A DNA stretch of 64,000 bases from Tubulanus polymorphus (Eukaryota > Animalia > Nemertea), in NCBI RefSeq assembly GCF_964204645.1, contig NC_134030.1, positions 14,880,110-14,944,109 of the forward strand, in the 5' to 3' direction. A program made the translations under genes and the position numbers. The stretch's first letter is position 1. Each line of letters opens with the position of its first letter. This document shows positions 9,926 to 59,890 of this stretch, piece by piece. A model generated the notes under the pieces. That model was not told where the DNA came from. It was given only the letters and a program-made list of their open reading frames with translations, and ran no database searches.

Positions 9926-9934
9926 CTTATTTTA

Positions 9935-12655: not shown

Positions 12656-13065
12656 AGTAATAGGGGTAATGGGCTTTCAGGTTAAAGGTTGAATGGTCGA
12701 GTTCATTAAAAACAAATATTAAAAGTAATTTAAAACTATAATATATTTTCAAAACCGTGTGCATTTCAGTTGAATAATAGAATAATTATTATTATTAAAA
12801 TATATTTGATTATATGAATTTGTGTATAGTAAATAAATCGATTGGTCGCGGAGTAGAGCGGTAGCGAAGTGGAGCGACCAATTGATTTAATACAATATGC
12901 TTTTAAAATTTAAATTATTAATATCTTAGAATAAATATTTAGTTATAATATAAAATGCACACGGTTATGAAAATATATTATAGTTTTAAATTACTTTTAA
13001 TGTTTTGTTTTTTAATGAGCTCGACCGTTCGACCTTTGGCCTGAAAGCCCATTACCCCTATTACT
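12656..13065. repeat. 410-bp imperfect terminal palindrome (AGTAATAGGGG...CCCCTATTACT) of a hairpin-ended element
   Basis: Arms are reverse-complementary; central stem TAAATCGATTGGTCGC/GCGACCAATTGATTTA with a purine-rich loop; arm ends homologous to the ends of 53847..57218. Confidence 0.92.
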
Positions 13066-20375: not shown

Positions 20376-20888
20376 GGCTATAAATTTTACGACTCAAAGA
20401 ATCTTTTTCTCAAAAAAGCCGCTTTGTGTTTGATGCAAAATATCATTTGCTTTAAAAATGTGTAACTAGGCCAAATCAAAAGGATATTTCAAGAGCAAAC
20501 TTTGCCGGGCCAAGAGCCATATTGAATTCAATTTTTTCCCAACCATTATGCCTCTTTAATCATAACATTATTTACCCTATTTCAAGATCTTAGGCCTACA
20601 AGTAGAGAGAGGGCCTACGTTGGGTTCAAATCGGAATTTTAAGATTTATTTCATTTAATTCCAGGTTTTCACTGTAGATTATTAAAGACATGTGGCATTT
20701 TTGGGAGTTCATAGTTGTTTGATAATCCATCATTTGTAAGTGTAAGGCTATTTGAGGGATTCGAAACCGACATTTTGTAAATTTTGTAGCTTTATTACGT
20801 TTAATTCCAGATGTTAATCATGACAGGGTTCATTTTGGGGGTTTGTCAGCGAGTTGGTATGCTGTCGGCAGAAGTAGTTTGATAATTC
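20376..20888. repeat. Segment of large inverted duplication (pairs with 53225..53737)
   Basis: Reverse-complement similarity visible throughout. Confidence 0.88.
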
Positions 20889-20925
20889 CCCACTCATCAC
20901 CACAAGTAATTTTTTTTCCTTATAA

Positions 20926-23900
20926 ATGGGAGAGAATAAGACAGAACACATTGATGTTAATGAAAATCAATATTATTGTCCATATTGTAAAAAATACATT
21001 GATAAATCTCGAAAATCGCGTCATGAAAAATCTTCAAATCATATAAAAAATGTTATAGATTTTGAAACTTCAGAAAATTCCAATGAAAGAAAAGAACGAT
21101 TAGAAAATATGAATGTGGATGAAATAAAATGTGAAGTTTGTAATGAATTTATAGTAAAAAGGAATTATAATAGACATCTCGAATCACAAAAACACCATCA
21201 AAATTTGAGTAATTATGTTTTAGGAAAAGATTATTTCGATGATAAACCTCAAAAAGTAAAAAACCAACTTCAAAAACTAAATCCATTTCAAATAAACCTT
21301 ACATGGAAAATGTTAGAAATTATATTGATTCACTAGAAATAAAAGATACAATTGAAATATTAGAAACATTACGTATTAAAATTGGTCCTACAGCTATTAT
21401 ATTTAGATTTTTTAAAGGTACAACAATAGAAGATTATAGTAAATTTAATGAAATAATAGAAAAAATACTAGATTTGATAACAGATGTTGAATATCCAAAA
21501 ATTAGTATCTCTGGGAAAGTAAGTTTTTTAAAGTCAGAAGAGAAAATGGATTATAATATTCAAACACTCTCTGAAGAAATAATTTCAAAAACGCAAATAA
21601 AAGAGAAGTTAGAAAAAATATTTAATGAATTTAAACGTCATATTGAAGAAAGATATTTTGAGGGTTCTGGTTTATCATTAAATGAAATTATATTTTTAGA
21701 TTTAAGTGTTTATAATACAAAAAGAAATAAAACATCAAAAAGTAATAAAATGTTTAAAAATGATTCAAACTTTACAACAGAAAAGGAGGATATTAAAGGA
21801 TCATATTATATTAAATTACCATTTACAACAAAAGCAGTGATAAATGTTCAAAATGAAGATAATAAATGTTTTCTGTGGGCAATTATTAGTTGCTTACACG
21901 CAACAGAAGATATTACACATAGTTTTAGAATAACAAATTACCGGAAATATGAAACATTATATAAAATTGATCAATATCCAGTAACTATAAAAATGATTTC
22001 TAAAATAGAAAAAGTTAATAATTTAAAAATAAATGTATTCGAATTAATGCAATTACCAAAGACAAAAGGTGAAAATATTAAAGATTATACATTGGAAGCT
22101 TTATATTTAACAGAATATTATGATGATGAAAATGCTATAGATTTGTTATATTACAAAAAAGATGAAAATGAACATTATATGTGGTTAAAACAAATTGATT
22201 TATTCTTTAGAACAGAAAGTGATCATCATCGTAAAATTTATCTATGTAGAAAATGTTTATCTAAATTTATGACTGAGAATACATTATTAAAACATAAAGA
22301 ATTATGTGATAATAAAGATTTTTGTAAATTAATAATGCCAACAGAAAAAGATTATAAATTGCAATTTACTAATCATAAATTTAAGAATATTGTTCCATTT
22401 GTAATTTATGGGGATTTTGAATCGTTGAATAAAGAATTAACTGATCAAGATAGAAAAGAAATATATAATAGAAAGCAATTATTAAAATCAATGGATAAAG
22501 GAAATGAATTAAATGAAGACACAACACAAGACCCACCAATTATAAATACAATTAAAAAAGTTCATCAAAGAGCTGCTGCTTATGGAATTTATATAAAATC
22601 AAATTATCCTGAATTATATGAAAGTCAATATATTTCTTTTAGAGGTAAAAATGTAGTTAATGTTTTTTGTGACAAAATGATTGAATTAGAAAGTGATTTT
22701 GCAAAATTATTAAACAAAAATAAAAGAATAGTTATGACAAAAGAAGATGAAATTGATTTTAATTATGCAACTCATTGTTGTTATTGTGAAAAACGTTTTT
22801 ATTCATTTGATAAAAAAGTTAGAGATCATGATCATTTCAATTCAAAATATCGTGGAGCTGCTCATGAAGATTGCAATTTACAAGCTAAGAAAGTTAATTT
22901 CGTACCAATATTATTTCATAATTTATCAGGCTATGATACCCATCTATTTATAAAACAATTATCAAAGAAATTGGGTACAATTAATCAAGAAATATAAGAA
23001 TATAATGCTATGAATGGTGTAAATGTAAGAAAATATGATTTTAAACTATTAGCTTAAACATCTGAAAATTATATTTCATTTCCATTTGGTTGCATTAGAT
23101 TTTTAGATTCCTATAGATTTCTAGCAAGTTCATTAGATAATTTATCAAAATAGTTGATAATGATTTTGTTATAACTCGATATTATTATCCAAATGAACAA
23201 GATTTTAAATTATTGAGATATAAAGGTGCAATTCCTTATTCATTTTATAAAACACACAATGATTTTAATGTAACAGAATTATTAAAAGATCAATTTTATG
23301 ATCAATTAAAAGAGGAGTATGCGAAGTGTTTAATAGAACATTAAATATTTGGAACCATTTTAAGATGAAAAATCATGGTGAATTAGTTGATTTATATTTA
23401 AAATCAGATGTTATGATATTGGCTGACATATTTGAAAAATTTAGAGAAGTTAATTTGAATCATTTTAATGTTGATCCTTGTTATTGCTACTCTAGTCCTG
23501 GTTTAACCTGGCAATGTGGTTTAAAATATACAAATGTAGAATTAGATTTATTAAAAGAACCAGACATGGTTTTATTATTTGAAAAATCAATTAGAGGTGG
23601 AATTAGTGGTGTTATGGGAGGTATTTTAAAGCAAATGATGAATATAAATTATTATATATTGACGCCAATAATTTATATGGTTGGGCAATGATGCAACCTC
23701 AACCATATAAAAATTTTATATTAACAGAAGTTGAAAATGATGATAAAACTGATTGGGAAAGCGCAATTGCGAGTTTAAAAGATGAAGCACCAATTGGTTA
23801 TTTCTTTGTTGTTGATTTAGAATATCCTGAAAATATAAAGTTTAAAACAAGAAACTTACCTTATTGTCCAGAACATTTAACTGTAGATGATAGTTATTTA

Positions 23901-25262
23901 AGTGAATACCAGAAGAAAATAAAACCGAAAGATCATGTTTTTACAGAAAAATTAATACTTACTCAAAATAATAAATACAATTATATCGTTCATTATAGAA
24001 TGTTAAAATTTTATCTAAAACAAGGAATGAAATTAAAGAAAGTACATAGATATATTGAATTTAATCAATCGAAGTGATTAGAAAAATATATAGATTTCAA
24101 TACTCAACAGAGAACCATATCAAAAACAGATTTCGAAAAAGATTTTTTTAAATTAATGAACAATAGTTTTTATGGTAAAACATGCGAAAATATTAGAAAT
24201 AGAAATGATATTGAATTAGTAAATAATTCTGAAAGATTAAGACACCTACAATCAAGTCCTAGGCATTTAGGAAATAAAAGATTTGAAGATTATTTAACCG
24301 CAGTTAAAAAGAACGTCAATGAAATTTAATAAACCTATATTCATTGGTTCAACTGTTTTAGAAGTATCAAAATTATTAATGTATGATTTTTATTATAATG
24401 TTTTACAACCACTTTTTGGGGAAAAGCATATTGAAATATTATATTTTGATTCTGTAACAGCTGACACCCCAATATTATTAAAATGTAATGATAAAATATT
24501 GATAAGAAGAATTTCAGAAATAATTCCAAAACAAAATGAATGTTATATTTCATATGGTGAAAAAGAATTAATACAAATAAATGGATTAATGGATGTTTGG
24601 ACAAGAAATGGATGGAAAAAATTAAAGAATATTATTAGGCATAAAACAAAAAAGAAAATCTATAGAGTTAGAACTAAATTAGGGTTTGTAGATGTTACAG
24701 AAGATCATAGTTTAATTAAACGAAATGGCTATGAAATAAAACCAACTGATATAAAAATTGGAGATGAATTATTACATAAAAGATTTTTCCAAAGAATGAA
24801 TCATATGTCATTTGATGAAATAATTGATAATATTTATAATATAGAACCCGAAACATTAGAAGAAAAAGAATATTTTATCAAAGGATTTTTCATGGGCGAT
24901 GGTTCAGCAGGTGTGTATAATTATGTATGGGGTAATAAATATTGTTGGTATTTATGCAATCAAGACTTAAAATTATTAGAAAGAATTAAGAAATTCTGTG
25001 AAGAAGTTTATTCACATAAAACATTTAGAATCATGGATCATATGAAATCATCAGCAGTTTATAGAATACTTGTAAATAATCCTAAAGATTTTGCTATAAA
25101 ATATAATGATGAATTCTATATTCATACAATAGTGAAAAGTAATACTTCAACAAAAGAAAAGATAGTTCCAGATAATGTATCAAATGCAAAAAATAATTTA
25201 AGAAAATGGTTCTTCATTGGATTCTACGCAGCAGATGGTGCTAAAAAATTTACAAAGGATAA
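20926..25262 (+). pseudogene. polB: Protein-primed family B DNA polymerase (C2H2 fingers, vOTU-like protease, exonuclease with EndoVII insert, polymerase, intein), C-terminally deleted
   Basis: NKCFLWAI...EHY; YGDFES (Exo I); RDHDH...YRGAAHEDCN; FHNLSGYD (Exo II); YLKSDV (Exo III); SIRGG; YIDANNLYG; KLMNNSFYGK; NKPIFIG; ILYFD. Several frameshifts and stops. Confidence 0.93.
24451..25262 (+). mobile_element. Intein with LAGLIDADG homing endonuclease in PolB motif C, C-terminally truncated
   Basis: LYFD|SVTADTPILL (block A), VDVTEDHSL (block B TxxH), FIKGFFMGDG (block C), FFIGFYAADG (block E); blocks F/G absent. Confidence 0.9.
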
Positions 25263-26390
25263 AAATAAGGTGGTCAAGGTGATTATTATATTGATATCAC
25301 TTATAAACGTGAAAACAAAATCAGAATCAACTTTAGAAAAATTAGAACCAGATAGAATTAAAAGAATTAGTAATAGTAATGTAATGATTGATGTTACGCA
25401 AAAAGAAAGAGATGATAATATAGACGTATTTAAACAAAAAATTAATGAATTATTAGAAATAATCAAAAAGAAATCAGAAACAGAAACCACTTCTGAACAG
25501 AATAAAACTTCCAAAACTAGTAAACTTAAATCAAATAAAGTTCCAATTGAAAAACTTTTACCGAATGGATTAATTGATGCAACAGATCAAGAATTAGAAG
25601 ATTTAAATAATATATTTTCTGTTGAAGCAATTAGAGAAATTAAAAGTATAAGGCTTGCATCTGATAAAATTGCGCATGATAAAAGTATAAGAGATTTTAA
25701 AATTAGAACTTTAGAAAAAGAATTAACTGATAAAAATAAAGAAAAAGAACAATTAAAGTCTGATTTAGATCATCAATTAATTTATGAAATAGAATAAAGG
25801 CAAAAAGAATTACGTTTAGAAAAAGAAAAAGATGATTTAGAATATAACATAGAATTACAAAAAGAAGAAATTAAATTATTATTAAAATCATATGATTATA
25901 ATATTAATAGATTAAAAGTTATTTTTAAAGATTTGTTGATTAAACCAAATTCTGAAATATCATTGAAAGATAGAATAAGTTATTATTTAAATTAGAAGGA
26001 ATAACAATTCTTTCAATTCTAACAGCTGTAACTATGTTATTTACAACAATTGGTTTAGCAATATCAAATGCTTTAAAATCTACTCCTACTCCAAATAAAC
26101 CGGATAAACCCCCGAATGATAATAATTCTTTACAAGATAAAGTTAAAGATGGTTTGAAAAAATTAGCAAAATATTTATGGGAACTATCTAAAAAATCTGC
26201 TGCAGCTTTACCAGGAATTATTGCATCAATTGTTGGTTTTATATTGAAATCTGCTGGGAATATTCTTAACTTTGCCGCTGAACATATTATTTTATTTTTA
26301 ATTACAGTTGTAAGTGCTATTATTTTTGGGTTAGTGAATATGATATCAAAAAGATATCAAGAAAAAATAATTAATTTTTTTTTTAAATAA
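25263..26390 (+). pseudogene. C-terminal part of the coiled-coil/multi-TM protein, fused to the intein by deletion
   Basis: Aligns with element A ORF 4517 (REIK, LEKELT, MLFTTIGLAISNALKS...). Junction position approximate. Confidence 0.8.
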
Positions 26391-27639
26391 ATGATTGGGA
26401 GTTATATAAGTCCTTCTACGATTTCTAGAATATCTAACGCTATTAAAGCAGAAAGATCGCATCATATAATTACACATAATCCTTCAAATATTAATCCCGA
26501 TGAAACTTTATACGTTAGAATTCCTAGATTAACACAAAATACTTTTTATGTTCCAAATAGTATTTATTTATCAGCCGATATAAAAGTAACTGGTCATGAT
26601 AATAATTATGTTGTCGATAATGTTGGGAGATATTTGATTAAAAAATTAACTATTAAGATTGGTCCAGAAACAGTTTTCTCATTAGATGATTATAATTTAT
26701 TTATGCATTATAAAGATTTATGGTTAACTAAAGAAAATAGAAAAAATATGATATTTCAGGGTATTCAATCGGAAAACCATAATAAATTAAGATCTGAAGC
26801 CAATAATGCAGTAGTAACTAGTGCCGCAGATAATTTGATAAAAAAGATTTATGGAAGCAAATATAAAATTCCATTAGACTTTGAATTGATGAATAATAAT
26901 GCACCTTTATATAAATATGTAATTCAAGAAGATATTATATTTGAGATAACATTTGCTCCTGTAAATGAAATTGTATTATCTAGCGTTGTTAAAGATATGG
27001 GTTATAAATTATTAAATATATGTTTAGAATATGACACAGTAACTAATGAAAATATTGCTAGCACAATTCAAACTCAATACAATCAAGGATTTTCATTATT
27101 ATATGATATATATTGATAAATTTAAAACTGTAACTATTAATGCAAATGATGAAATAATTAATGAGAATATTAACTTCTCAAGAAGATCTATTAAAGGTAT
27201 ATTAATATTTTTTACCATTGCAACATATTCTAATGGTGCAATAAAGGTAGATATTTATTATAATCCTGAAATAACAAAAGTAGAAATAACTATTGAAGGT
27301 ATAGCAAATAAAATATTTTGTCAAGGAATGAGAATGATAGATCAATGGCCAGAAATTAGAAAACATTTTATGAATGAAAACGTAAAATCATTTGAAAATT
27401 GTAATATTAATCAAATTGATTATTATACCGGCAATAAATACGCATTATGGTTAGATTTTAGAACAACAGAGGATAATTCATTACATGGTTCTGGGAAAAA
27501 ACTACAGAACACTAAAGATGGAATACAATTATTCATGAAAAAGAAAAAAGGAAGCTTAAATTTTAAAATGCACATTTATATTATATCTGACGCACAATTA
27601 AATATTGTAAATTCACAATTAGATAGTATTCAATATTAG
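26391..27639 (+). CDS. Major capsid protein as two overlapping ORFs (26391..27116 and 27103..27639)
   Basis: Both halves are open; the only break is the one also present in element A. Confidence 0.75.
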
Positions 27640-27669
27640 AAATATAAAGTTAAAATTAAGGATATATAA

Positions 27670-28788
27670 ATGAGTGGTAAAAAAACTCCTAATACTAAAG
27701 AACAATATTTAAGAAATTTATATTACAACCCTGAGAGTTCGGTTGCTTATTCTTCTACCAAAAATATATGGCGTCAAGTAAAACAAGATAAATTAGATAA
27801 GATAATCCCACAAAATTTAGTTAAATATAAAGATATAAATGAATTTATGTTAGAACAACCAACATACACAACACATAAAAAAATTGTTAGAAAATATAAA
27901 ACTCGTAAAACTATGGTAAGTTATGTAGATCAACAGTGGCAAGGAGATTTAATTGATATGAAAAATGTTAAGAAAGATAATGATGATTATTGGTGGATAT
28001 TGAATATAATTGATATTTTTAGTCGTTATGTATGGAGCTTCCCACTTTATAGAAAAGGTGCTGTACAAACATCAAATGTTTTAAGAAAATTTCTTTCGGA
28101 TGATAAACTAAGACCAGAAAAAATACAATTTGATGACGGAAAAGAGTTTGATTATTCACTTGTTCATGAACTCTAAGACAATCATAATATTAAATATTTT
28201 TCAACAAAATCGGATAAAAAAGCAGCAGTTGTTGAACGATTTAATAGAACATTAAGAACAAGAATGTGGAAATATTTTACAGCACATAATACTTTTAAAT
28301 GGATTGATGTTTTACCAAAATTGATAGAAGGATATAATAATTATTATCATTCTTCTATTGGAATGAAACCTATTGATGCTAGAAAACCTGAAAATGCTGA
28401 AATTGTTTGGAATAATTTATATGGAGCATTTCTTGTAGATGATTTTGGTGAACCTAATGGTCAAAATGTTAGAATTTCTAAGTATAAAAAGATATTTGAC
28501 AAAGGATACGATCGAAATTTTACTAGGGAAATATATAAAATAAAAAAGGTAATAACAACAAAACCATATGTCTATAAATTAGAAGATTTAGATGGTGAAG
28601 AAGTTGATGGGTATTTTTATGAAGAAGAATTGAGTTTAACTACTGAAAATCTAGAACAAGAATATAAAATTGAAAAAGTATTAAAAACAAAAACTATTAA
28701 AAGAAAAAAATATTCTTTAGTAAAATGGGTTGGATGGCCAGATAAATTCAATGAATGGATATTATCAAGTAAAATTAAAAATATATAA
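27670..28788 (+). pseudogene. int: rve integrase with chromodomain, one premature stop
   Basis: WQGDLIDM, QFDDGKEF, AAVVERFNRTLR, LVKWVGWPDKFNEWI. Confidence 0.93.
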
Positions 28789-29397
28789 ATGAATAAGGAA
28801 TTATTTATATTTGAGCCTCATAATATGTTAATTTCTGGCGTAACAAATTGTGGAAAAACTTATTTTATATTAAATTCATTAGAAACTATTTATGAAAACT
28901 ATTTTGATAATATAGTATTATTTTGTCCAACATATGAATTTAATCAAACTTATGATAGAAATATTACTAGAAATAATAAATTTATCATATTAGATCCTAA
29001 AACAGTAAAAGAAAATTTAGATAATTGTATTAAAATAGCAATAGATATTTATAAAGGATCAAATACATTATTCATTATAGATGATTGTGCTAATCTACAT
29101 GATTCAAAAGTTAGAGAAAGTGAGTTATGCTATTTAGCTTTTTCTGGCAGACATTTTGGGATAACAACTTGGGTTTTAAATCAAAAATATAATTCAATTG
29201 TTAAAGACTTTAGAGAAAACATTAGATTTCTAATTTTATTCTACAATAAAGATAGAAAATCGATGAAAAATGCACTTGAGGAAAATGATATTATTCCACA
29301 TGATTTACATAATGAATATATGGATAAGTTGAAAAATATTAAAAGATCAAAATTACTATTTAGATAACAACACCCATTTGAATATGAATTTATTTAA
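28789..29397 (+). pseudogene. A32/FtsK-like packaging ATPase, premature stop near the C-terminus
   Basis: GVTNCGKT, LFIIDD, GRHFGI; frame continues QHPFEYEFI after the stop at 29365-29367. Confidence 0.9.
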
Positions 29398-29399
29398 AT

Positions 29400-29672
29400 T
29401 CAACTGGCTTGTTAATCTAGTTGAATTCTAGTTACATTCTAGTTGAATTCTAGTTATTAGTAGTTGGAACAAAAATCAACTAGATTTAACAATATTTTAA
29501 CTAGCTTGTTAATCTAGTTGAATTCTAGTTACATTCTAGTTGAATTCTAGTTATTAGAAGTTGGAACAAAAATCAACTAGATTTAACAAGAAATAAATAA
29601 AAACAACAATATTTCAACTAGCTTGTTAATCTAGTTGAATTCTAGTTACATTCTAGTTGAATTCTAGTTGCA
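29400..29672. repeat. Three intergenic repeats built of CTAGTTGAATTCTAG units
   Basis: CTTGTTAATCTAGTTGAATTCTAGTTACATTCTAGTTGAATTCTAGTT x3. Confidence 0.9.
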
Positions 29673-29699
29673 ACATCACAACTAATTTTTTTGTTATAT

Positions 29700-30292
29700 A
29701 AAAAATAGGTGAAAAGAAAATAAAATCTAAAAATGGTGATGTTCCAATTGAAAAAACTTTAGATGATTTAGGAATAACAGAAAACAAATTAACTCCAGAT
29801 GATGGTGCTTTAAATAATGTTACAACAAATAATAATTATGAATATTATCTTTATGGTAAACATCAATTAGAAATATTAATAGCATCTGGAAAATGTAAAA
29901 ATTTTATCGGTAAAAATTTAACTTATAATGAATTAGATACAATGAAATCAGATGAAATTATTAGATTATTTAAGATTTATGAAACCGCGAGAACAGCTAG
30001 AATTAATGATGCGATATCAGAAAATGTAGTAAAAGGTTATAGTAAATTATGTAATTATATACTACCAATTGAAGATGAAAATAGATTATATTCCGATTTA
30101 AAAAATGATTATTTAGTTATGACTGAATTAAATAAATGGATTGGATATTTATCATTTCAATTAGGTGGATTTATGACATTATTATCAACTGGAGTTATAA
30201 CATTTTCAAATATTGAAAGTAAAAATATTTCTATAATAAATGAACAAGGTGGAAGAAGTGAAGAAAAAACCGAGATCACAGAAACAAATTGA
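29700..30292 (+). pseudogene. Homolog of A 10165..10760
   Basis: IEKTLDDLGI upstream of and in frame with ORF 29942; start codon degenerate. Confidence 0.7.
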
Positions 30293-30580
30293 ATGGTCTC
30301 GGCAATTAGGAATTAAATCACAAGAATATACAAAAGCTGTAAATGAAAAAATAAGTAATAAAAATGGTGAAAATATTGTTATTTCTACTCATTCTAATAA
30401 TAGAATATTTGATAAATGTCTATATTTTACAGTTGGATTTGTAATTGTATTCATTTTGATTGGGTGTAATTGGTATAAGAAATCAAATTAAATTCATGAT
30501 ATTAATAATTCTGAAACAACTGCTATCAAAAATGAAAATACTTCTGAAATTCCAAAATTGATAATAAAGAAAATGGATTA
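30240..30580 (+). pseudogene. Small basic protein with TM segment
   Basis: TAAATG start; homolog of A 9935..10164; ends ...KMD* after a stop at 30491. Confidence 0.6.
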
Positions 30581-30623
30581 ATATTTTAGAAAAAAAGCAA
30601 AAAAATAATTTTTTTTTATTAAT

Positions 30624-30729
30624 TGAATATCACCATGTGGGTGCCATACGGCACCATCTCACTACTTTTGTCTATCTATGCGGAGCAATTAAATTGTCCA
30701 GATAAGTCATTTCGGATTCTAGATATTCA
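30624..30729. other. Conserved structured non-coding motif, copy 2
   Basis: Closing stem TGAATATC/GATATTCA, extra hairpin GGTGCC-ATAC-GGCACC, same core as 10998..11090. Confidence 0.7.
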
Positions 30730-30759
30730 TTATTTTTATTAATTTATTTTTTTTCAAAT

Positions 30760-31086
30760 TTAATCAACAATTTCTAAATCATGATGGCCATCTTCATTTT
30801 TTCCATGATAGATTATTTTAAATCCTTTTAAATCTTTTAATTCCTCTGTACTCAATGAAACCCATTTATCAGGTAAAAATACTTTAAATTCTCGCGATGT
30901 ACTAACATTACAGTAGCTTAAAATCGCTGATACTTTCTCTCCATATTTAGTTTTTATCTTTTCTAATTTCAATATTTTATGTTCAGTTTCTTTTATAACA
31001 TCAACTAACTTTTTTATTTCAAATTGTTTTTTTGCTGGTTTTATTCTGTTATTTATTGTTGCTAAGAATGCTTTTCTACTTCCCAT
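30760..31086 (-). CDS. Small conserved Polinton protein (108 aa), start codon inside the right TIR
   Basis: Intact ORF; homolog of 1..273. Confidence 0.75.
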   Translation of the reverse strand: MGSRKAFLATINNRIKPAKKQFEIKKLVDVIKETEHKILKLEKIKTKYGEKVSAILSYCNVSTSREFKVFLPDKWVSLSTEELKDLKGFKIIYHGKNEDGHHDLEIVD

Positions 31087-31436
31087 TTATAAGGAAAACA
31101 AATTACTTGTGGTGATGAGTGGGAATTACTTCCCCTTATATATAACAAACACGCTATTAACCGTTCTCACCCAAGCCTCACAGCATCTATTTATCCGAGC
31201 ACAGTTGACACGCAATCAATGTACTACAGTAATAGCACACGCGTTAATAACCGTTCTCAGTAGCGACTCACTGTATCCATCTATCCACGCGCAGTTGTTG
31301 TTACGCGCACTCACTGTATATGTGTATCACATAGCAATCGTCCGTTCTCACTAGAGCCTAGCTGTGATGAGTGGTGTCTCGACCTCTCGACCTCTGGTAT
31401 GAAACCCACATCTTCCAATTACTAGTTTGACTAACA

Positions 31437-34140
31437 CGTCTTTTAGAATAAGAGACCTATTGCATTAATCCTTCAATTCAAGTTGCCATACAACCTTTTA
31501 TACAGATATTTACCTTGCCATTTACCAATATAAACATGTATTTGCCATTAGCGGAAAAAATTCAATTGTTTGATTCTAGGTGAATAGGTCATGATTCATT
31601 TTGGGAGTTAATCCTTCAATTCAAGTTGCTATACAACCTTTTATACGGATATTTACCTTATCAATATAAACATGTATTTGCCATTAGCCATACAATTCAG
31701 TAAAACTTTTCCCGTCCAGATTTTGAAACATCATTTGACTCAATTTTTCCTCCTAGAAAATTGCTTTAGCTCATTCCAATGTTGGCAGTAAAAGTGTATT
31801 GTAGCCTGTATGATTCCCATCCATCAATTTTGTCCTGTTTTTTAGCGAAATCATCTCGAAAAAGTCTGACGTCGAGGCAGGTGGTGGCCAGGAAAAATAA
31901 TTTTCTGGGCAAATATTTAAACATGCATGGCAAACACACTTATTGTTCAGTATTGAAGTATTGTAATAAACTATTGATTTATTTTTGTCAATCAACGCAA
32001 CTAGTTTTGTTGTTTTCTTCCTTAATTTACAGTTGATTTGGATGGTCATCTTGCGTAGGAGTCAGTTTGTCATCGAAGCAATACAGTCTAACTTGTTTAC
32101 GTCTCAGATGCAGCGGCACCAACGATCATTATATTGTAGACTTATCCAAATTACACTTACACAGCCCAAGATGTTTCAGTGTGTAAACTCCGTCGTACTG
32201 GCCATTATAAGACAATGAGGAATTGAGTTTTAGCCACCCGAGCCCTCGGCTTGATTCGAGCAAAAAGACCTTAACTGACTTCACAGAATTGGATAATTGG
32301 AGTCACGGATTTTCTAAATTTCTGAATGCTTTCACTGGTTTTAAGATCAATTCAAATTCAATCTTCAATACATAAAAATTTATCAAATAAATTTTTATTT
32401 TATTGAAAGAAATTCTACTGAACACAGATTTTTAAATGAAGGATATATCCAGGCAAATGATTACAGCAAAATCAACTGATGATCATCAAGGTGAAGTTTT
32501 CATTCATCTTCGGCTAATTTGTCTACCCCAGATGATTGAAGCATTTTGGTTACTCGCGCCAATTAGTCAGCCACAGTCGATTTTCAATCCATCTGACCTC
32601 TTTCCATCTGTAATTAAGCAATCAAATGTAAGAATTACTTGGTTAAGAAGCGAAATAAAATATAGATATCTTAGGAGACTAATTTAAATCATGAGTTTGT
32701 TGTGAAAATCTATTACTACAGTCTCGTAGAGCATAGACACCAAGCCACGTGGCATTGGTATTTTAAGGGCTATTCAGTTTACTCGAAAACAAGTCTATGA
32801 TTAACATTAAAAAAAGCTTCATATCAAGGCTATGTCACAAGACCATGAATTATCATCCCATAATAACAATGAATCCTATTCTGCATGTACGTTAGCACGA
32901 CTGATTACTAATCCAAATATTGCATTACAAAAAAAATACAATTTCGCAAAACGTGAAGTACTTATAGCATCTGAGACAGTTGCGCTTCAGTTAGTGTTAA
33001 GTTACGTCTTTGGCTGTCAATGTCGAAACAGCCTAATTTGAAACATGCATTAGCGCACTGTGGTTTAATATTCCTGCAAGAATCCGCTAAGGAATTGAAG
33101 ACCGTAGTGACCAGTTCATTCCACGAATAATAGCTGGAAAGAAAGTAATCAAAATAAATTGTCGTGCACATTCAGTGTAAACCAGGCCATAACTAGCTGC
33201 TATTAAGGCATTCCACTGACTGGCTCTACCCACTTTATTTCGGGCCTAAATCTATTCTAGGCGCATCCCCCATAAAGCTAGGCATTAAGTAAGTAGCCAA
33301 CAATGATCATTGCTTCACCGAGTACTCATTTGCTACCATACTCATATCATTAAATAAATCATTTAATACATTCCCTGGTTTACGGATTTTCACCTTAAAA
33401 TACATAAACTCCGCTGTCGTTGTTATCGATCCGAGTCGGCAACTGAACGCGGAAGTAAAATTCCGTGTGAAAATTCCTACAATATCTGTCCATATCACGT
33501 TGATTTGAGCCCGAAATCCTCAGGAAATGTAGCCAACGTAAATTGATTTACGAACAGAATTAATCAATTGACTCATTTGAGAAATCATGGTTTCGTGAAA
33601 TTCATTTTAAGTCATAAAACTCGCGATAAACTTAAACCGAAAATGATTTCAACCATCCACCATGTTGTCTCATTAATAAAACAATTGTTGCGCGCCGACA
33701 CTGTACTGATATGTGTCCTGCCTGAATGCATGGTTTCGCTAGGATTCGAACCCTCAACCTCTCGGCTGTGAGTCTAACACCTTATCCACCCTACCAAAGG
33801 ACAGGACGCGTTATTTACCGTTAGTGGGAGTACGCGACACGGCGAGTGGCGATTGCTACTATCATCCGGTGTATCTTACAGTAAGTAATTTAATGTTTAA
33901 AATAGGATGGAGAGTGCATAGATAGAATCTACGCGGAGAGAATGAGTGTTATATAACTATCAGAATTCTACATTTCGATTAGAAGCTGTTAGTTGTCGAA
34001 TCTGATAGAAGATGAACTTTATGTGCGAAAAAAAGTGGAAAATATGTAAATAATAATAATAATCAACAGAATTACAAGAGAGTTTTCGACGAACGTCAGA
34101 AAACCCTAAATATAGCTGCAAAGCAGCGATAACGGGTTTC
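31437..34140. repeat. Main segment of large inverted duplication (pairs with 50210..52842)
   Basis: Long reverse-complement similarity; matching spurious ORFs on opposite strands (e.g. 32436+ versus 51781-). Confidence 0.9.
33731..33803 (-). pseudogene. tRNA-derived sequence (pseudo-tRNA or SINE head)
   Basis: A-box-like TGGTAGGGTGG, B-box GGTTCGAATCC, anticodon-like loop CTCACAG; acceptor stem poorly paired. Confidence 0.65.
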
Positions 34141-38695: not shown

Positions 38696-39089
38696 GAAGC
38701 GATAAAGGGCCTCGAGTTGTCGCGTTCCAACTCGACAAAGTCGCCATATTTATGTCGACATATCGCGATATATTGCTTCAAGTCGACATGAATATGTCGA
38801 AATATTGTGACGTTTCGACGACATATTTTCTCAACCATTTTCCTCGCAACAATTCGACATATTCATGACGACTTGAAACTCAGTCGCCATATAACTGGCG
38901 TCCTCATCTTATATTTCGACGTGTCTTCAAATGACGGCTTGTCCCGTGGAAAATGGGCGAAAAAGCGAAATTTGTCGTGAAAACGTCACGATATGTCGAC
39001 ATATTCATGTCGACTTGACGCGATATGTCGACATAAATATAGCGACTTGTCGAGTTGGAACGCGACAACTCGAGGCCCTTTATCGCTTC
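38696..39089. mobile_element. Foldback MITE-like element with long imperfect TIRs
   Basis: GAAGCGATAAAGGGCCTCGAGTTGTCGCG... / ...CGCGACAACTCGAGGCCCTTTATCGCTTC. Confidence 0.8.
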
Positions 39090-50209: not shown

Positions 50210-53200
50210 AAAACCCGTTATCGCTGCTTTGCAGCTATATTTTCCACATCAAATTTTTTTTCGCACATAAAATTCATCTTCTATCAGATTCGACAACTAA
50301 CTGCTTCTAAGTGAAATGTAGAATTCTGATAGCAATATAACACGCATTCGCTCCGCGTAGATTATACCTATGCACTCTCCGTCCTATTTTAAACTTAAAA
50401 TTACTTACTGAAAGATAACACCGGATGATAGTAGCAATCGCGACTCGCCCTGTCCGGTACTCCCACTAACGATAAAAACAGCGTCCTGTCCTGTGGCATG
50501 GTGGATAAGGTGTTTGACTCCCTGAGAGGTCGAGGGTTCGAATCCTAGTGAAACCATGCATTATCACAGTACAGCGCCGGCGCGCAACAATTGTTTGATT
50601 AATGAAACAACATGCACAGGGGTTTGGCGATGGGCTTGGATTTTATTTCCGGGTTGTTGATAATCTCGCGAGAATGGCGCTAAATATGAACTGTAATAAA
50701 TTCAAAATATCACGGAAATACCTTGTGTTTATATTGTTTATTTATCCGCTATAAAGTTTCGATAAACAATTGGTCGTTAAGAATCATTATCAGACGGTCG
50801 CCACGCTACAATATAAAAGTACAAGGGATGAAACGCCAGGCCTCCGCTGTACTTAAATTTTCAGCCAGAAAGTTGGGACAGTCACGTGACATTGTAGGAA
50901 TTTTCACACGTAATTTTACTTCCGCGTTCAGTTGACGATTCGTATCGATGACAACGACAGCGGAGTTTATGTATTCATAGAACTATAACGGATATTCCGT
51001 TATAGTTCTATGATGTATTTTAAGGTGAGAATCCGTTAACCAGGGAATGTATTAAATGATTTCTTTAATAATATGAGTATGGTAGCAAATGAGTAGGCCT
51101 ACTCGGTGAAGCAATGATCATTGTTGGCTACTTACTTAATGCCTAGCTTTTTTGGGGGATGCGCCTAGAATAGATTTAGGCCCTAAATATAATGGGTAGA
51201 GCCAGTCAGTGGAATGCCTTAATAGCAGCTCGTTATGGCCTGGTTTACACTGAATGTGCATGACAATTTATTTTGATTACTTTCTTTCCAGCTATAATTC
51301 GTGGAATGAACTGGGCACTACGGTCTTCAATTCCTTTGCGGATTCTTGCAGGAATATTAAACCACAGTGCGCAAATGTATGTTTCAAATTAGGCTTTTTC
51401 GACATTGACAGCCAAAGACGTAACTTAACACGCTAACTTAAGCGCAACTGTCTCAGATGCTGTAAGTACTTGACGTTTTGCGTAATTTTTTTTGTAATGC
51501 AATGTTTGGATTAGTAATCAGTCGTACATGCAGAATTGGATTCATTGTAATTATGGGATGATAATTCATGGGCGTCACGAGTCCTGCGACACACCCTTGA
51601 TATGAAGCTTTTTTAATGTTAATCATTGACTTGTTTTGGAGTAAACTGAATAGCCCTTAAAATGCCAATGTCACGTGGCTTGGTGTCTATGCTCTACGAG
51701 ACTGTAGTAATAGATTTTCACAACAAACTCATGATTTCAAATAGTCTCCTAAGATATCTATATATTATTTCGCTCCTTACCTAAGTAATTCTTACATTTG
51801 ATTGCTTAATTACAGATGGAAAGAGGTCAGATGGCATGAAAATCGACTGTGGCTGACTAATTGGCACGAGTAACCAAAATGCTTCAATCATCAGGGGTAG
51901 ACAAATTAGCCGAAGATGAATGAAAACTTCACCTTGATGATCATCAGTTGATTTTGCTATAATTATTTGCCTGGATATATCCTTCATTTCAAAATCTGTC
52001 TTCAGTAGAATTTCTTTCAATAAAATATTTTGAAGATTGAATTTGAATTGATCTTAAAACCAAAGAAAGCATTCAGAAATTTAGAAAATCCTTGACTCAT
52101 AATCAAATTCTGTGAAGTCAGTTAAGGTCTTTTTGGTCGAATCAAGCCGAGGGCTCAGGTGACTAAAACTCAATTCCTCACTGTCTTATAATGCCGAGTA
52201 CGACAGAGTTTACACACTGAAACACGTTGGGCTGTGTAAGTGTAATTTGGATAAGTCCACAATATAATGACCGCCCTGCCCCGCTGCATCTGAGACGTCA
52301 ACAAGTTAGACTGTATTGCTTCGATGACAAACTGACTCCTACGCAAGATAACCATCCAATTCAAATGTAAATTAAGAAAGAAAACAACATAACTAGTTGC
52401 GTTGATCAACAAAAATAAATCAATAGTTTATTACAATACTTCAATTTCAAAATAAGGATAGGAAAAAATTGAACAATAAGTGTGTTTGCCATGCGTCTTT
52501 AAATATTTCCCAAGAATATGTCTTTGTCTGGCCACCACCTGCCTCGACGTCAGACTTTTTCGAGATTTTCGCTAGAAATACGAAACAAGACAAAATTGAT
52601 GGATGGGAATCATACATGCTACATTCATTCTTACTGCGAACATTGGAATGAGCTAAAGCAATTTTCTAGGAGGAAAAATTGAGTCAAATGATGTTTCAAA
52701 ATCTGGACGGGAAAAGTTTTACTGAATTGTATGGCAAATGGCAAATACATGTTTATATTGATAAGGTAAATATCTGTATAAAAGGTTGTATAGCAACTTG
52801 AATTGAAGGATTAATGCAATAGGTCTCTTATTCTAAAAGACGAGTGAGCCATACTTACTAGATTGGTCATGTGAATCAACATCAAATTTAGAACTATCAT
52901 CCATTTTTAGTTTTCAATCAAAGACAAACCTATGAAATAAAGTACATATTTTTCTGATAACAACCTGGAATAAATTAAAATAAATCTGAGGAATTCACCA
53001 AATTTCTGTATCGAACCCCTAATAGGGCCTATATAACCTATAGATTGATACTTACATACGACAAATTGACGAAGAAACTTCATTTGACAGTATACAAACT
53101 CGCGGACAAACTCCCAAAATGAATCATGTCCTATTCACCTAGAATCAAACAAAATACAACTAAAAAATTCACAATACAGATTTTGGTTTCGAATCCTTCA

Positions 53201-53737
53201 AATAGCTGTTTACTTACATGAAACGAATTATCAAACTACTTCTGCCGACAGCATACCAACTCGCTGACAAACCCCCAAAATGAAACGTGTCATGATAAAC
53301 ATCTGGAATTAAACGTAATAAAGCTACAAAATTTACAAAATGTCGGTTTCGAATCCCTCAAATAGCCTTACACTTACAAATGATGGATTATCAAACAACT
53401 ATGAACTCCCACAACGCCACATGTCTTTGATAATCTACAGTGAATACCTGGAATTAAATGAAATAAATCTTAAAATTCCGATTTGAACCCAACGTAGGTC
53501 CTCTCTCTACTTGTAGGCCTAAGATCTTGAAATAGGATAAATAATGTTATGATGAAAGAGGCATAATGGTTCGGAAAAAATTGAATTCAATATGGCTCTT
53601 GGCCCGGCAAAGTTTGCTTTTGTAATATCCTTTTGATTAGGCCTAGTTACACATTTTAAAAGCAAATTTCATTTTGCATCAAACTAAAAGCGGCTTTGTT
53701 GAGGAAAAGATTCGTTTGAGTCGTAAAATTTATAGCC
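50210..53737. repeat. Uninterrupted copy of the large inverted duplication
   Basis: Reverse complement of 31437..34140 plus 20376..20888. Confidence 0.88.
50488..50557 (+). pseudogene. tRNA-derived sequence, second copy
   Basis: Inverted paralog of 33731..33803 with a deletion in the anticodon arm. Confidence 0.6.
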
Positions 53738-53846
53738 CCTCGCCATTTCATCAATTTTCATCCGATCTTTGTGAAATTTGGGATGTGTACTTGACTATGA
53801 TTGATGTATCAACACAACTAATTTCATCAAAATCTGAGTTCATGTG

Positions 53847-54191
53847 AGTAATAGGGATAATAGGCTTTCATACCAAAGGTCGAACGGTCGAGCTCATAAA
53901 AAATGAAAAACATGAAAATAATAACAATTTCTACTTGAATTAGTCGCGAAACTCATAAAAAATGAAAAATAATTCTCGCACACGAATCTATTTTTCGAAT
54001 TTTTTTTACTCGCTAGAAAAAAGTGTGAGTAAAGTGTGAGTGAAATAAATTCGAGTGTGTGAGAATTATTTTTCATTTTTTATGAGTTTCACTCCTAATT
54101 CAAGTAGAAATTGTTATTATTTTCATGTTTTTCATTTTTAATGAACTCGCCCCTTTAACCTTTGATATGAAAGCCTATTATCCCTATTACT
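53847..54191. repeat. Left terminal palindrome (345 bp)
   Basis: AGTAATAGGGATAATAGGCTTTCATA...TATGAAAGCCTATTATCCCTATTACT. Confidence 0.95.
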
Positions 54192-54311
54192 CTTAAAATA
54201 TTCATATACATGAATAAAATATATATGAATAACATATAAATTGATAGATTATTCAATATAAAAGTGTGAGTGAAATAATTCATATTTAAAACATTGAATA
54301 TTTATATTTGA

Positions 54312-54962
54312 ATGAGTTTTAATAAAAATTTTGTTATAAAAATGAAGAAAGAAGAAGAAGAACACAACTTTAAAATCGAAATCAATGAAACCAATAAATC
54401 ATTTTCACAGTTTTACATTAAAAATTATATTTCAGCAACAAATTTAGTGTCCGCAAGACATTATAAAATCGATAACATAACTATGATTAATCAAATATTA
54501 TCAAATGAAACTTATTTAATTACTGAACTAGTAGATACTTTTGATAATGGTGTTAAAAATCCTAAAGTATTCAATACAGTTTTAAATTTTAAAGGAACTT
54601 TAGATGAAAACATAATTAATATTCTTAAAACTCCTTTCAATGAAAGAAATAATGATATAATACTTTCAAAAGATTACAATGATTTGATTAACTTAAGAAT
54701 TGAAAAAAGACAATTATATTATTTCAATTTTGATAATAAACAAATTATCTATAACGAAAATTCATCAAATATTGGAATTCAATGTGAATTAGATAATGAA
54801 AAATCATTTAAAGATATTGCAGTTCAATGTAATTTAGATGATGAATTTAGAAAATTCAATCCTAATGAAAATTTTCATTGTTATTGCGGAGGTAAATATT
54901 CAAAATCACATAAATCAAAGCATTATGAAACAATTAAACATAAAAACTTGCGTAAAGAGTAA
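54312..54962 (+). CDS. 216-aa protein with C-terminal C2H2-like zinc finger, inside the left TIR
   Basis: Intact ORF; CYCGGKYSKSHKSKHYETIKH; duplicated IxxQCxLDxE. Confidence 0.75.
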   Translation: MSFNKNFVIKMKKEEEEHNFKIEINETNKSFSQFYIKNYISATNLVSARHYKIDNITMINQILSNETYLITELVDTFDNGVKNPKVFNTVLNFKGTLDENIINILKTPFNERNNDIILSKDYNDLINLRIEKRQLYYFNFDNKQIIYNENSSNIGIQCELDNEKSFKDIAVQCNLDDEFRKFNPNENFHCYCGGKYSKSHKSKHYETIKHKNLRKE

Positions 54963-55014
54963 CAATTCTACATTATAATTATTGAATTGAGTTAAATGAT
55001 TTAAATATCTAATA

Positions 55015-56039
55015 GACTGTTAAAATGATAAATTGTTTGACAGTTGAAATGATAAATTGTTTGACAGTTGAAATGATAAATTGTTTGACAATTGAAATGA
55101 TAAATTGTTTGACAGTTGAAATGATAAATTGTTTGACAGTTGAAATGATAAATTGTTTGACAGTTGAAATGATAAATTGTTCGACAGTTGAAATGATAAA
55201 TTGTTCGACTGTTGAAATGATAAATTGTTCGACAGTTGAAATGATAAATTGTTCGACTGTTGAAATGATAAATTGTTTGACAGTTGAAATGATAAATTGT
55301 TTGACAGTTGAAATGATAAATTGTTCGACTGTTGAAATGATAAATTGTTTGGCAGTTGGAATGATAAATTGTTCGACTGTTGAAATGATAAGACAGTTGA
55401 AATGATAAATTGTTTGACAGTTGAAATGATAAATTGTTTGACAGTTGAAATGATAAGACAGTTGAAATGATAAATTGTTTGACAGTTGAAATGATAAATT
55501 GTTTGACAGTTGAAATGATAAATTGTTTGACAGTTGAAATGATAAATTGTTCGACTGTTGAAATGATAAATTGTTTGGCAGTTGAAATGATAAATTGTTC
55601 GACTGTTGAAATGATAAGACAGTTGAAATGATAAATTGTTTGACAGTTGAAATGATAAATTGTTTGACAGTTGAAATGATAAATTGTTCGACTGTTGAAA
55701 TGATAAATTGTTCGACAGTTGAAATGATAAATTGTTCGACTGTTGAAATGATAAATTGTTTGACAGTTGAAATGATTAGACATTTGAAATGATAAATTGT
55801 TTGACAGTTGAAATGATAAATTGTTTGACAGTTGAAATGATAAATTGTTTGACAGTTGAAATGATAAATTGTTCGACTGTTGAAATGATAAATTGTTTGA
55901 CAGTTGAAATGATTAGACATTTGAAATGATAAATTGTTTGACAGTTGAAATGATAAATTGTTTGACAGTTGAAATGATAAATTGTTTGACAGTTGAAATG
56001 ATAAATTGTTCGACTGTTGAAATGATAAATTGTTCGACA
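55015..56039 (+). repeat. Central 24-bp tandem array (GTTGAAATGATAAATTGTTTGACA) with occasional 17-bp units
   Basis: About 40-45 units; variants TTCGACT and TTCGACA. Confidence 0.97.
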
Positions 56040-56106
56040 ATCATTTTAACAGTCTATTAGATATTTAAATCATTTAACTCAATTCAATAATTATAATGTA
56101 GAATTG

Positions 56107-56756
56107 TTACTCTTTACGCCAGTTTTTATGTTTAATTGTTTCATAATGCTTTGATTTATGTGATTTTGAATATTTACCTCCGCAATAACAATGAATTTTT
56201 TCATTAGGATTGAATTTTCTAAATTCATCATCTAAATTACATTGAACTGCAATATCTTTAAATGATTTTTCATTATCTAATTCACATTGAATTCCAATAT
56301 TTGATGAATTTTCGTTATAGATAATTTGTTTATTATCAAAATTGAAATAATATAATTGTCTTTTTCAATTCTTAAGTTAATCAAATCATTGTAATCTTTT
56401 GAAAGTATTATATCATTATTTCTTTCATTGAAAGGAGTTTTAAGAATATTAATTATGTTTTCATCTAAAGTTCCTTTAAAATTTAAAACTGTATTGAATA
56501 CTTTAGGATTTTTAACACCATTATCAAAAGTATCTACTAGTTCAGTAATTAAATAAGTTTCATTTGATAATATTTGATTAATCATAGTTATGTTATCGAT
56601 TTTATAATGTCTTGCGGACACTAAATTTGTTGCTGAAATATAATTTTTAATGTAAAACTGTGAAAATGATTTATTGGTTTCATTGATTTCGATTTTAAAG
56701 TTGGGTTCTTCTTCTTCTTTCTTCATTTTTATAACAAAATTTTTATTAAAACTCAT
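56107..56756 (-). pseudogene. Inverted copy of the 216-aa gene in the right TIR, 1-bp deletion
   Basis: Near-identical; the A-run near 56365 is one base shorter. Confidence 0.8.
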
Positions 56757-56876
56757 TCAAATATAAATATTCAATGTTTTAAATATGAATTATTTCACTC
56801 ACACTTTTATATTGAATAATCTATCAATTTATATGTTATTCATATATATTTTATTCATGTATATGAATATTTTAAG

Positions 56877-57218
56877 AGTAATAGGGATAATAGGCTTTCA
56901 TATCAAAGGTTGAAGGGGCGAGTTCATTAAAAATGAAAAACATGAAAATAATAACAATTTCTACTTGAATTAGGTGTGAAACTCATAAAAAATGAAAAAT
57001 AATTCTCACACACTCGAATTTATTTCACTCATACTTTACTCACACTTTTTTCTAGCGAGTAAAAATGAAAAATAAATTCGAGTGTGTGAGAATTATTTTT
57101 CATTTTTTATGAGTTTCGCGACTAATTCAAGTAGAAATTGTTATTATTTTCATGTTTTTCATTTTTTATGAGCTCGACCGTTCGACCTTTGGTATGAAAG
57201 CCTATTATCCCTATTACT
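56877..57218. repeat. Right terminal palindrome (342 bp)
   Basis: Mirror of 53847..54191. Confidence 0.95.
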
Positions 57219-57264
57219 CATGTGGTAACAGGCCTTGTTGATTTGACATGGAACCCTTGACTTT

Positions 57265-57282
57265 TGGTGCCGTGACCGGGAT
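57265..57282 (+). promoter_or_regulatory. Primer binding site, tRNA-His-like
   Basis: TGGTGCCGTGACCGGGAT immediately before the BEL/Pao gag. Confidence 0.75.
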
Positions 57283-59890
57283 GGATGATGATACGAATGT
57301 TTTCTCGGGCCAACGGACCCTAAGCCGTGTGAAAACTTCGCAAAAAACTCAACGTGGTCAACTGACGAAACTATTCAAACGAGCGGATGATCAACTACAC
57401 AACGCAAACGAACTTCTAGACAAGAAATTAGCTCTACTTACTAGCACATTCAACAAAATCGAAGGGAAGATCAGCGAAATATCGAACCTCGACGAGGAAA
57501 TTATCGAACTTACTAGCGACGCCGACCTGGGAATACGATAACCGATGCGGATGATTACAATATCGAAGTGAACGAAAAAATACCGACGGTCCAATTCGAC
57601 GTGAGCAAGCTCATTCTGGTCCCAGAACCGAATTCAATCCGAACGCCGACGTCAACGCGACATCATCAGAACACGAATTTACCGAAGCTTCAATTACCCA
57701 AATTCAGTGGGGATATCATCAATTGGATAACCTTTTTCGACGCGTTTAAATCTGCAGTCCATGACAACACCCAGCTCACGGATATCGGGACTATCACTGT
57801 CCAACAACAATTACGAACAAGCTCTCTAACTCTTAACAAAACGGTATGGACCAAACCATAAAATTATAAACGCTCATATGACAGCGCTTTTGGATATACC
57901 AAAGCCAGAATCGAACGTAGATAGCATTAGGCGTTTTAATGATATATTAGAGAGTCATATTCCAGGACTGAAATCGTTGGGAAAATCGGAGGAATACTAC
58001 GGCGATCTTCTGATTCCTATAATCATGGAAAAACTACCGAATAGTCTAAGGACACAAATCGCTCGCGAACATGGAGACAGTGAATGAACATTACAAGAAC
58101 TCAGAACGTCGATAGAAAAGAAGATAGATGCTCTTCAAGCTGGGGTGACTGATTTGTCTTTATCTGAACCCTCGTATATCAGTACAACCACACCGCATCC
58201 TTCATCACTGGAACAGGAAATAGAAAAAACAGCCACCCGCCGTGAACTAGCTTCAAGAGACCGATGCAGTGCCCCTTCTGCAAAGGTACACACAACCCGG
58301 TCGATTGTACTAAAGTTACTACCGAAAAACGTGAAGAGATTATTCGGAAAGATAACCGCTGTTTCAGTTTTTTCGGGACTCATAAAGTTAACACATGTAT
58401 GTCTTTATGGAGATGCAAAATCTGCACCTGGAAACATCACACGCTACTCTGTCGAAACGAGAAATCGAATCCAGATGCCGAAAACGTAAACGTCAATGCA
58501 TCCTTTGCCTCGACCTGTTCCGAGAACCGCTCCGATAACATGACTCAGCACGGACCAGTTCAGCTGAAAACCGCGGTGGCGAAACAAACTGACACGAACG
58601 ATAATCTGACTGCCACTTCCACGATCCTTTTCGACGAAGGGTCAACTCGTTTATTCATAACATATGAACTCGCCGCAAAATTAAAGCTAAAGACGGATTC
58701 GCGCGAAACGATCAACCTTTCAGTTTTTGGTGATGAAAATACGCGCGAAAAATGTTTCGATAAGGTGAAGGTCAACTTAGCAACGACCGAACATGGGAAC
58801 ATCACAATATCTGCTCTCAAACCACCGCTCGTGAATCTACCGTACTTGAAGGGGCTTAAGCTAGCTCATCCCATATCAAACCAAGATTCATTCCAAATAT
58901 TTGTTTTGATCGGGGTAGACTACTATCTGGAAAATCGTGCAGAATCACATCGTGCGAGGAAATGGACCCACAGCGCTGGCGTCTAAACTGGGCAATCTTC
59001 TGTCGGGGCCCTATCGGAATAACACCGCGCGAGATGCGATGACTATGCTGATCATGACAAAAAATGATCAATTTGAACGTGATTAACTCCAAAACTTTTG
59101 GGATCTAGAATCACTTGGAATTAAGGCACCAAATGATGATGACATCAGCTTCGACACGTATCGCGACGACTATCTGCGCAACGAAGGAGACCATTACGTT
59201 GCCAAGTTACCGTGGAAATCAGAACACCCACCACTACCCACGAACAGCGAAATCGCGAAAAAGAGAACACGCTCTATGGCTAAACGTTTACCGCCAAAAT
59301 ATGCTCCGCATTTACGACCGCATAATCGGCGAACAAGAAGCGCGGGAAGTCATCGAGCGCGTATACGACGATGACAATTCCTGTGGGCATTATATTCCAC
59401 ACCACGCCGTCAAGAAGGATTCCAAAACTACGCCGATTCGAGTCGTTTATGACTGCAGCTGTCGGTCAATCCACATCGCGCCCAGTCTCAACGACTGTTT
59501 GGAGACAGGTCCACCGCTGATCAATGACCTCGCGAACCTACTGTTAAATTTTCGGTCTATTTCTGTAGCCTTATCCAGCGACGTCGAGAAGGCGTTCCTA
59601 CATGTAGGATTAGACGAGACCGACCGCGATTTCACCAAATTCTATTGGATAAGCGATATAAAAAAAATCCAGACAGCGAGCTGATTGTTTACCGATTCAA
59701 CTCCAGACTTTTCGGTGCGGCATGTTCACCATTTATTCTGAATTCCGTCATCAAAGCTCATCTTGAACAACATCAATCGAACGTAGCACCTGATCTCCGA
59801 GATAAGATATACGTCGACAACGTAGTAACATGTGTAAACGACGTCTAAGAAGCGACCGAATATTACGCCCAGGTGAACCACGTCATGAAA
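57265..59890 (+). mobile_element. BEL/Pao retrotransposon remnant (gag, Cys knuckles, protease, partial RT); no LTRs visible
   Basis: LPKLQLPKFSGDIINWITF; CPFC...H...C, CKIC...HHTLLC; LFDEGS; YIPHHAV, RVVYDCS, DVEKAF, LFGAACSPF, YVDN. Confidence 0.9.

Follow-up and report, generated by a model that had tools for sequence, protein, structure and literature searches.

A nearly palindromic, single-gene 3.4-kb element with Polinton-type ends in the genome of Tubulanus polymorphus

Introduction

How does a DNA element that encodes one small protein, and consists for the most part of two inverted copies of the same sequence, come to carry the integration signature of a Polinton? The question is raised by a nearly palindromic, one-gene element of 3,372 bp at 53847-57218 of a 64,000-nt stretch of the genome of the nemertean Tubulanus polymorphus (contig NC_134030.1, 14,880,110 to 14,944,109, forward strand; hereafter, the window). 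A first-pass annotation had proposed a transpoviron-like satellite that borrows a Polinton integrase and may replicate through fold-back ends. Non-autonomous Polintons, namely Polinton ends without the core genes, are reportedly represented in Repbase and in the work of Kapitonov and Jurka from 2006; we know of none that was palindromic or hairpin-ended and, to our knowledge, Polinton excision, replication and re-integration have never been shown directly.

Results

Structure of the insertion

The analysis confirmed a real, nearly palindromic insertion composed of the following features (window positions; Polinton A is a second element described below).

53841-53846, unstranded: left 6-bp TSD, CATGTG
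53847-55029, + strand: left arm (TIR), 1,183 bp
53847-54191, unstranded: left terminal palindrome, 345 bp, with a stem of about 135-140 bp
54192-54318, + strand: AT-rich subterminal segment, homologous to Polinton A at 12554-12655 (73% over 188 bp)
54312-54962, + strand: inward-pointing 216-aa ORF with a C-terminal C2H2-like zinc finger
55015-56039, + strand: 24-bp tandem array of about 44 units, with 17-bp variants
56012-56054, + strand: array-to-right-arm junction, a local hairpin by folding and a candidate snap-back turnaround point
56040-57218, - strand: right arm (TIR), 1,179 bp
56107-56756, - strand: second gene copy, frameshifted near codon 132
56877-57218, unstranded: right terminal palindrome, 342 bp
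57219-57224, unstranded: right 6-bp TSD, CATGTG

The two TSD copies are identical (6/6) and enclose AGTA...TACT ends. The arms, which account for 70.0% of the element, are 98.6% identical and differ in 17 columns representing 13 events. A 23-nt end motif occurs at four sites in the element (53847 and 56877 on the + strand, 54191 and 57218 on the - strand); allowing up to three mismatches, it was found at six sites in the window compared with 0.00 in 100 shuffles, the other two being 12656 and 13065. Between the arms lies the array, with 44.2 copies in a single orientation, whose first partial unit falls within the left arm; the inner end of the arm is itself a partial unit. The array unit was absent elsewhere in the 64-kb window, and ORFs over the array were counted as repeat read-through. 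Predicted folding gave -11.3 kcal/mol for the right junction, compared with -3.5 for the left junction and -1.6 for an interior stretch.

The structure that the first-pass annotation had described, comprising the TSD and ends, TIRs of about 1.18 kb forming some 70% of the element, a palindrome of about 345 bp opening each TIR with the end sequence present four times, and a 24-bp array at the centre, agreed with these measurements. Integrase, polymerase and capsid genes are lacking, as it had stated: the single non-array ORF has no such homology. Its claim of a gene in each TIR stood in part, since both arms contain a copy but the right one is frameshifted, leaving the 216-aa frame open in the left arm only.

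The GC content of the element (24%) is similar to that of the two Polintons of the window, whereas its flanks range from 34 to 44%. A multi-copy repeat that lies on both sides of the second of these, Polinton B (20376-20888 and 31424-33486), is also present at 50888-53737, where an inverted copy adjoins the left side of the element. On the right, a degraded retrotransposon with a DUF1758 peptidase match (57242-59848), presumably Bel/Pao-like, begins about 25 bp past the TSD.

A zinc-finger gene under modest constraint

Searches with the 216-aa protein yielded six weak matches (E 3e-7 to 9e-4), all within the zinc finger and all to unnamed or 'hypothetical' singletons, while no homologue was found for the remainder of the protein. 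There were no matches among 113 candidates, no Pfam families and no Atlas match at a threshold of at least 0.9, and no homology to a nickase, helicase or polymerase was found in the protein, whose single-sequence fold reached a pLDDT of 32. Comparison with Rfam likewise gave no match. Read variants in the gene are not distributed as in unconstrained DNA: 42 variants from the best-supported rows, restricted to codons 11-216, with three rare ones dropped and each scored singly, comprised 16 synonymous changes compared with 8.9 expected (P=0.005), 26 non-synonymous changes and 0 stops. The gene family is therefore under modest purifying selection. As a guess, the zinc-finger protein might bind DNA at the ends of the element or at its array, and the AT-rich subterminal segment at 54192-54318 may serve as a promoter. 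A weak signal of a similar zinc-finger kind was observed in the first ORF of Polinton B.

The terminal hairpin is shared with a co-resident Polinton

The two end-motif sites beyond the element belong to a Polinton at the left edge of the window.

1-13065, unstranded: Polinton A, right part, its left end lying beyond the window; capsid, rve/chromo integrase, A32 ATPase
12656-13065, unstranded: terminal palindrome at the right end of Polinton A, 410 bp, from the window self-comparison

Several genes of Polinton A are broken, and its left end and polymerase lie outside the window. It was recognized by matches to the A32 ATPase (E=1.9e-11) and an rve/chromo integrase, and across the capsid region it shares 88% identity with Polinton B, on which a Capsid_N match was obtained (E=0.0013). 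The hairpins of the element and Polinton A are homologous over the first ~57 bp in both arms, and the two elements share a further ~125 bp just inside the hairpin; the termini of the element are thus homologous to the end of a co-resident Polinton, the property by which a non-autonomous derivative can be recognized. Because the gene and the loop beside the hairpin differ between the two, we consider Polinton A to be a relative rather than the parent, and a candidate for the helper lineage; no Polinton parent bearing the 216-aa gene was found within the window. The first-pass annotation had suggested looking for these hairpin ends in an autonomous Polinton; its own view that hairpin ends distinguish the element from Polintons was not supported: since Polinton A carries a homologous palindrome, the hairpin is a terminus of the Polinton family and no invention of a satellite.

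The gene adjoining the hairpin of Polinton A (11781-12449, - strand) encodes a 222-aa protein with no Pfam match and with what we take to be an HNH-like motif; relatives with 40% identity are present in the related metagenome Polintons L005 and L008. This protein is a candidate end-processing nuclease, or might merely be the product of a homing gene. Polinton B (20889-31124) contains capsid, integrase and ATPase genes as well as a PolB-like gene in pieces, which includes an intein/LAGLIDADG segment at 24319-25797; comparison of the PolB-like fragment with PDB returned nothing significant. Its inverted repeats of ~45 bp have neither AG...CT ends nor a hairpin and abut start codons directly, and its ends are probably truncated.

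The exact terminus pattern had no matches in IMG/VR or in JGI metagenomes, and ATPase queries retrieved no loci among viral contigs or GTDB. Neither the terminus nor the 216-aa protein had a match in any of 19 related metagenome loci, and the five of these checked for inverted repeats had no long terminal palindrome; these loci appear to end short of the termini.

Copies of the termini and the gene in sequencing reads

Ten sequencing runs were listed. Four of them, recorded as containing the sequence, came from one study, and the raw reads of run X5, whose figures rest on 12% of the run, from a second; no RNA run was listed as containing it. At least 1,498 X5 reads depart from the element at exactly 53847, and their agreement beyond this point is 0.34, which indicates many different insertion sites. 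Polinton-A letters were present in about half of the reads at 53857 (1,263/2,422) and in 397 of 837 at the inner hairpin end (54181), and 831 X5 reads part from the element at 53903 and continue with letters that match the Polinton A arm by eye. The X5 depth was ~1,070 over the element-type outer arm and ~190-330 over the gene, compared with 1.15 in the single flank bin that appears unique; with this bin as a weak baseline, the depth suggests arm copies on the order of a hundred. Terminus and gene thus occur at many sites in X5, where the termini of several families are pooled. Together with the TSD and the ends, the X5 termini and gene depth bear out the proposal of a non-autonomous, multi-copy family with a Polinton integration signature.

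Variation among these copies was structured. A joint from 53948 to 54090, found in 77 X5 reads and in contigs of X1-X3, trims the hairpin symmetrically (102/102). The six loose-end piles listed for X5, the smallest of 196 reads, include none at the inner edge of the hairpin (54191), which disfavors common solo units or flipped ends. At 54942, 103 reads depart into a sister gene family whose 3′ end differs and which takes about half of the gene-bearing reads, and a third terminus family is represented by 433 reads that diverge before 53866. These two observations indicate that the core motif is common to several Polinton-type end families of this species.

Continuity from arm to array was supported by an X2 contig matching 54952-55042 with 0 differences, an X4 contig spanning 54890-55042, and a read depth of 140-170 across 54944-55009, while 41 reads have different DNA before 55023 and place the array in other contexts. 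The joint between the array and the reversed right arm was absent from the best 15 of 39 joints, possibly being split over array registers. The implied mean array length is 1.7-3.2 kb if there are two arms to each array and 0.8-1.6 kb if there is one; both fit, and the estimate therefore does not discriminate between one- and two-arm structures. No reads or contigs bridging the junction of this insertion with its own flank were found, nor did any of the listed pieces cover a searched stretch from end to end.

We compared the arms with the family reads at 21 listed sites. At 15 of these, the arms share the window letter, and the shared alleles at 54512, 54755 and 54901 are lacking in 89-94% of family reads; at the remaining six, the left arm has a private letter that is opposed by the right arm and 63-98% of reads. 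The shared rare alleles and the left-private letters point to mutual copying of the arms followed by divergence after insertion, and not to an assembly fold-back. This pattern does not separate a snap-back from a deletion origin, as ordinary Polinton TIRs homogenize likewise.

Strand bias and predicted folding of the terminal hairpins

At offsets 27, 35 and 47, the base is C in the outer arm and T in the inner arm of each of the three hairpins (two in the element and one in Polinton A). Pooled asymmetric sites, with transversions left out and sites that are not independent, numbered eight of the outer-C/inner-T class and one of the opposite class (P=0.02). On the strand whose 3′ end lies at the terminus, the C/T sites become G-T pairs; this 3′-terminal strand is predicted to fold better by 4-11 kcal/mol in 3/3 hairpins. 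In the predicted fold, the 3′ end pairs flush and points inward, the geometry of a self-primer; a self-priming 3′-terminal hairpin can therefore form, according to folding prediction. Such a bias could reflect either selection acting on a 3′ hairpin or a mutational preference for one strand, priming itself being a model.

Discussion

Origin of the element

We consider it probable, if only by a little, that the element is a snap-back copy of a Polinton end, likely moved in trans by a Polinton polymerase and integrase. A snap-back is suggested because the right junction folds locally and the inner end of the arm is a partial array unit; mobilization in trans by Polinton enzymes appears likely from the TSD and the shared ends. 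During its formation, a nascent strand already carrying copies of the terminus, the first gene and one array unit would have folded upon the small palindrome of that unit and then copied the arm back, yielding two integrase-competent ends. The array would have expanded afterwards in the unpaired loop, and the arms would replicate as a unit, which would give them common rare alleles. For the Polinton family, we predict that the terminal hairpin acts as an origin or in end processing, the 3′-terminal strand being the one that folds. Hairpin-primed replication, if it occurs, would be a trait of the helper Polinton family.

Alternatively, the element might have arisen by internal deletion, possibly as a one-off, from a larger Polinton with long TIRs that contain the gene and abut the array. 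Maverick TIRs reach 1,447 bp (available text of PMC8097293), the right-type junction is not in the best 15 of 39 read joints, and the array was also met in other contexts; furthermore, the roughly threefold excess of element-type hairpins over the gene (~1,070 compared with ~300) indicates that other elements bear this end. Against these points, an array unit is folded back precisely at the junction, the array has a single orientation, and no listed loose end of at least 35 reads falls within 54943-55022, indicating that the arms mostly enter the array and not core genes. We regard a deletion origin as unlikely, although it is the main rival.

A further alternative is a distinct, parvovirus-like satellite replicon, whose 3′ hairpin would prime a host or helper polymerase, whose zinc-finger protein would have a part in its own propagation, and for which only integrase and capsid would be borrowed. 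The flush, inward-pointing 3′ end at the inner AGTA in the predicted fold, the strand-biased G-T pairs and the constraint on the gene are consistent with such a replicon, and the same model has been proposed for palindrome-ended virophages and PLVs in the available text of a preprint (bioRxiv 10.64898/2026.07.28.741278). We nonetheless find it doubtful to a marked degree: the protein shows no homology to nickases, helicases or polymerases; all three hairpins (3/3) have the same fixed outer/inner asymmetry; and the absence of 54191 from the six listed piles, set against 1,498 reads at 53847, suggests that flip/flop is uncommon in integrated copies. Moreover, Polinton pPolBs carry a terminal-protein domain (available text of bioRxiv 10.1101/2024.03.18.585575), and the PolB-like gene of the sister Polinton B provides a lead in the same direction.

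An assembly fold-back could be suspected since no read or contig bridges the insertion flank and no listed piece covers a searched stretch from end to end; we rejected it as the main reading and regard it as very improbable, given the perfect TSD between two different flanks, the 13 difference events with left-private letters where the right arm agrees with the family, and the presence of both hairpin ends and the arm-array junction in short reads. Least credible, and likewise rejected as the main reading, is an independent 345-bp MITE inserted twice around unrelated DNA: the unit is a self-contained inverted repeat with shorter variants, but the flanks of the four motif copies show no TSD of its own at the inner edge, contrary to one option in the first-pass annotation, the edge is followed in Polinton A by the subterminal DNA that also follows it here, and a large 54191 loose-end pile is missing from the six listed.

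Comparison with known systems

As a snap-back Polinton derivative, the element resembles intact Mavericks, for which the available text of a vertebrate survey gives TIRs of 46-1,447 bp, 6-bp TSDs and AG...CT ends (PMC8097293), in its AG...CT ends, its 6-bp TSD and a TIR length within this range, as well as in a terminus common to the co-resident Polinton. In contrast, it measures 3.4 kb compared with 13-25 kb (PMC8097293, same text), lacks pPolB, integrase, ATPase and capsid genes, and opens its TIR with a 345-bp palindrome; the strings 'palindrom' and 'hairpin' have 0 occurrences in the main text of that survey.

Terminal palindromes together with a hairpin-priming model are already published for protist virophages and PLVs in a 2026 preprint (10.64898/2026.07.28.741278). 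According to its available text, Halocafeteria seosinensis virophages (subtypes 1, 2, 5 and 6) and PLV subtype 4 have terminal palindromes that, as here, lie within the TIR beside the TSD; hairpin priming was proposed, and defective copies with TIRs and TSDs were noted. However, the palindrome of virophage subtype 5 is 52 nt, compared with 342-410 bp here, and the bearers of such palindromes are complete protist viruses with mostly non-pPolB replication genes, whereas those described here are a Polinton and a gene-poor, almost wholly palindromic derivative.

The architecture also matches that of asymmetric 5′ snapback AAV genomes, by functional analogy rather than homology. In the available text of PMC8235507, such genomes are self-complementary copies of a genome end with the hairpin ITR, promoter and first gene, include asymmetric forms with a single-stranded loop, and depend on a helper. 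AAV is, however, an ssDNA parvovirus with a Rep nickase, whereas the element integrates with a 6-bp TSD, forms a germline multi-copy family and has no known nickase. Transpovirons are likewise small, TIR-bounded and without capsid genes, being mimivirid parasites of ~7 kb with an SF1 helicase fused to a derived pPolB (available text of PMC5499653). The only protein of the 3.4-kb element has neither of these defining domains, and we accordingly rejected the transpoviron and, with it, the label 'transpoviron-like' given at first pass.

The mainly open-access literature searched contained no palindromic non-autonomous Polinton; none appears in the available text of PMC11296320, PMC3014272, PMC11131425, 10.1101/2024.01.15.575659, 10.64898/2026.10.13.758929 or 10.1101/2023.08.22.554363.

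Implications

An element of 3.4 kb that apparently spreads with its ends alone would define a minimal cis-acting unit. In addition, a long, strand-biased terminal hairpin across Polinton end families of one genome offers a concrete test of protein versus hairpin priming, and would extend such hairpins to a Polinton lineage, the literature found being confined to protist virophages and PLVs with far shorter ones. A bolder proposal, which we put forward tentatively and think unlikely to hold in full, is that this Polinton lineage replicates or processes its ends via 200-400-bp 3′ fold-back hairpins, beyond protein priming alone, and that the snap-back satellite family to which it gave rise, with its selected zinc-finger gene, would be a heritable defective-interfering genome of the Polinton.

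Two further observations concern neighboring and related sequences. The window contains another palindrome of ~400 bp (38696-39089, 76% self-match), without a match to the Polinton terminus. The related metagenomic Polinton L001 carries a deoxynucleoside kinase gene at 10340-10981 on the - strand (PF01712, E=1.7e-31).
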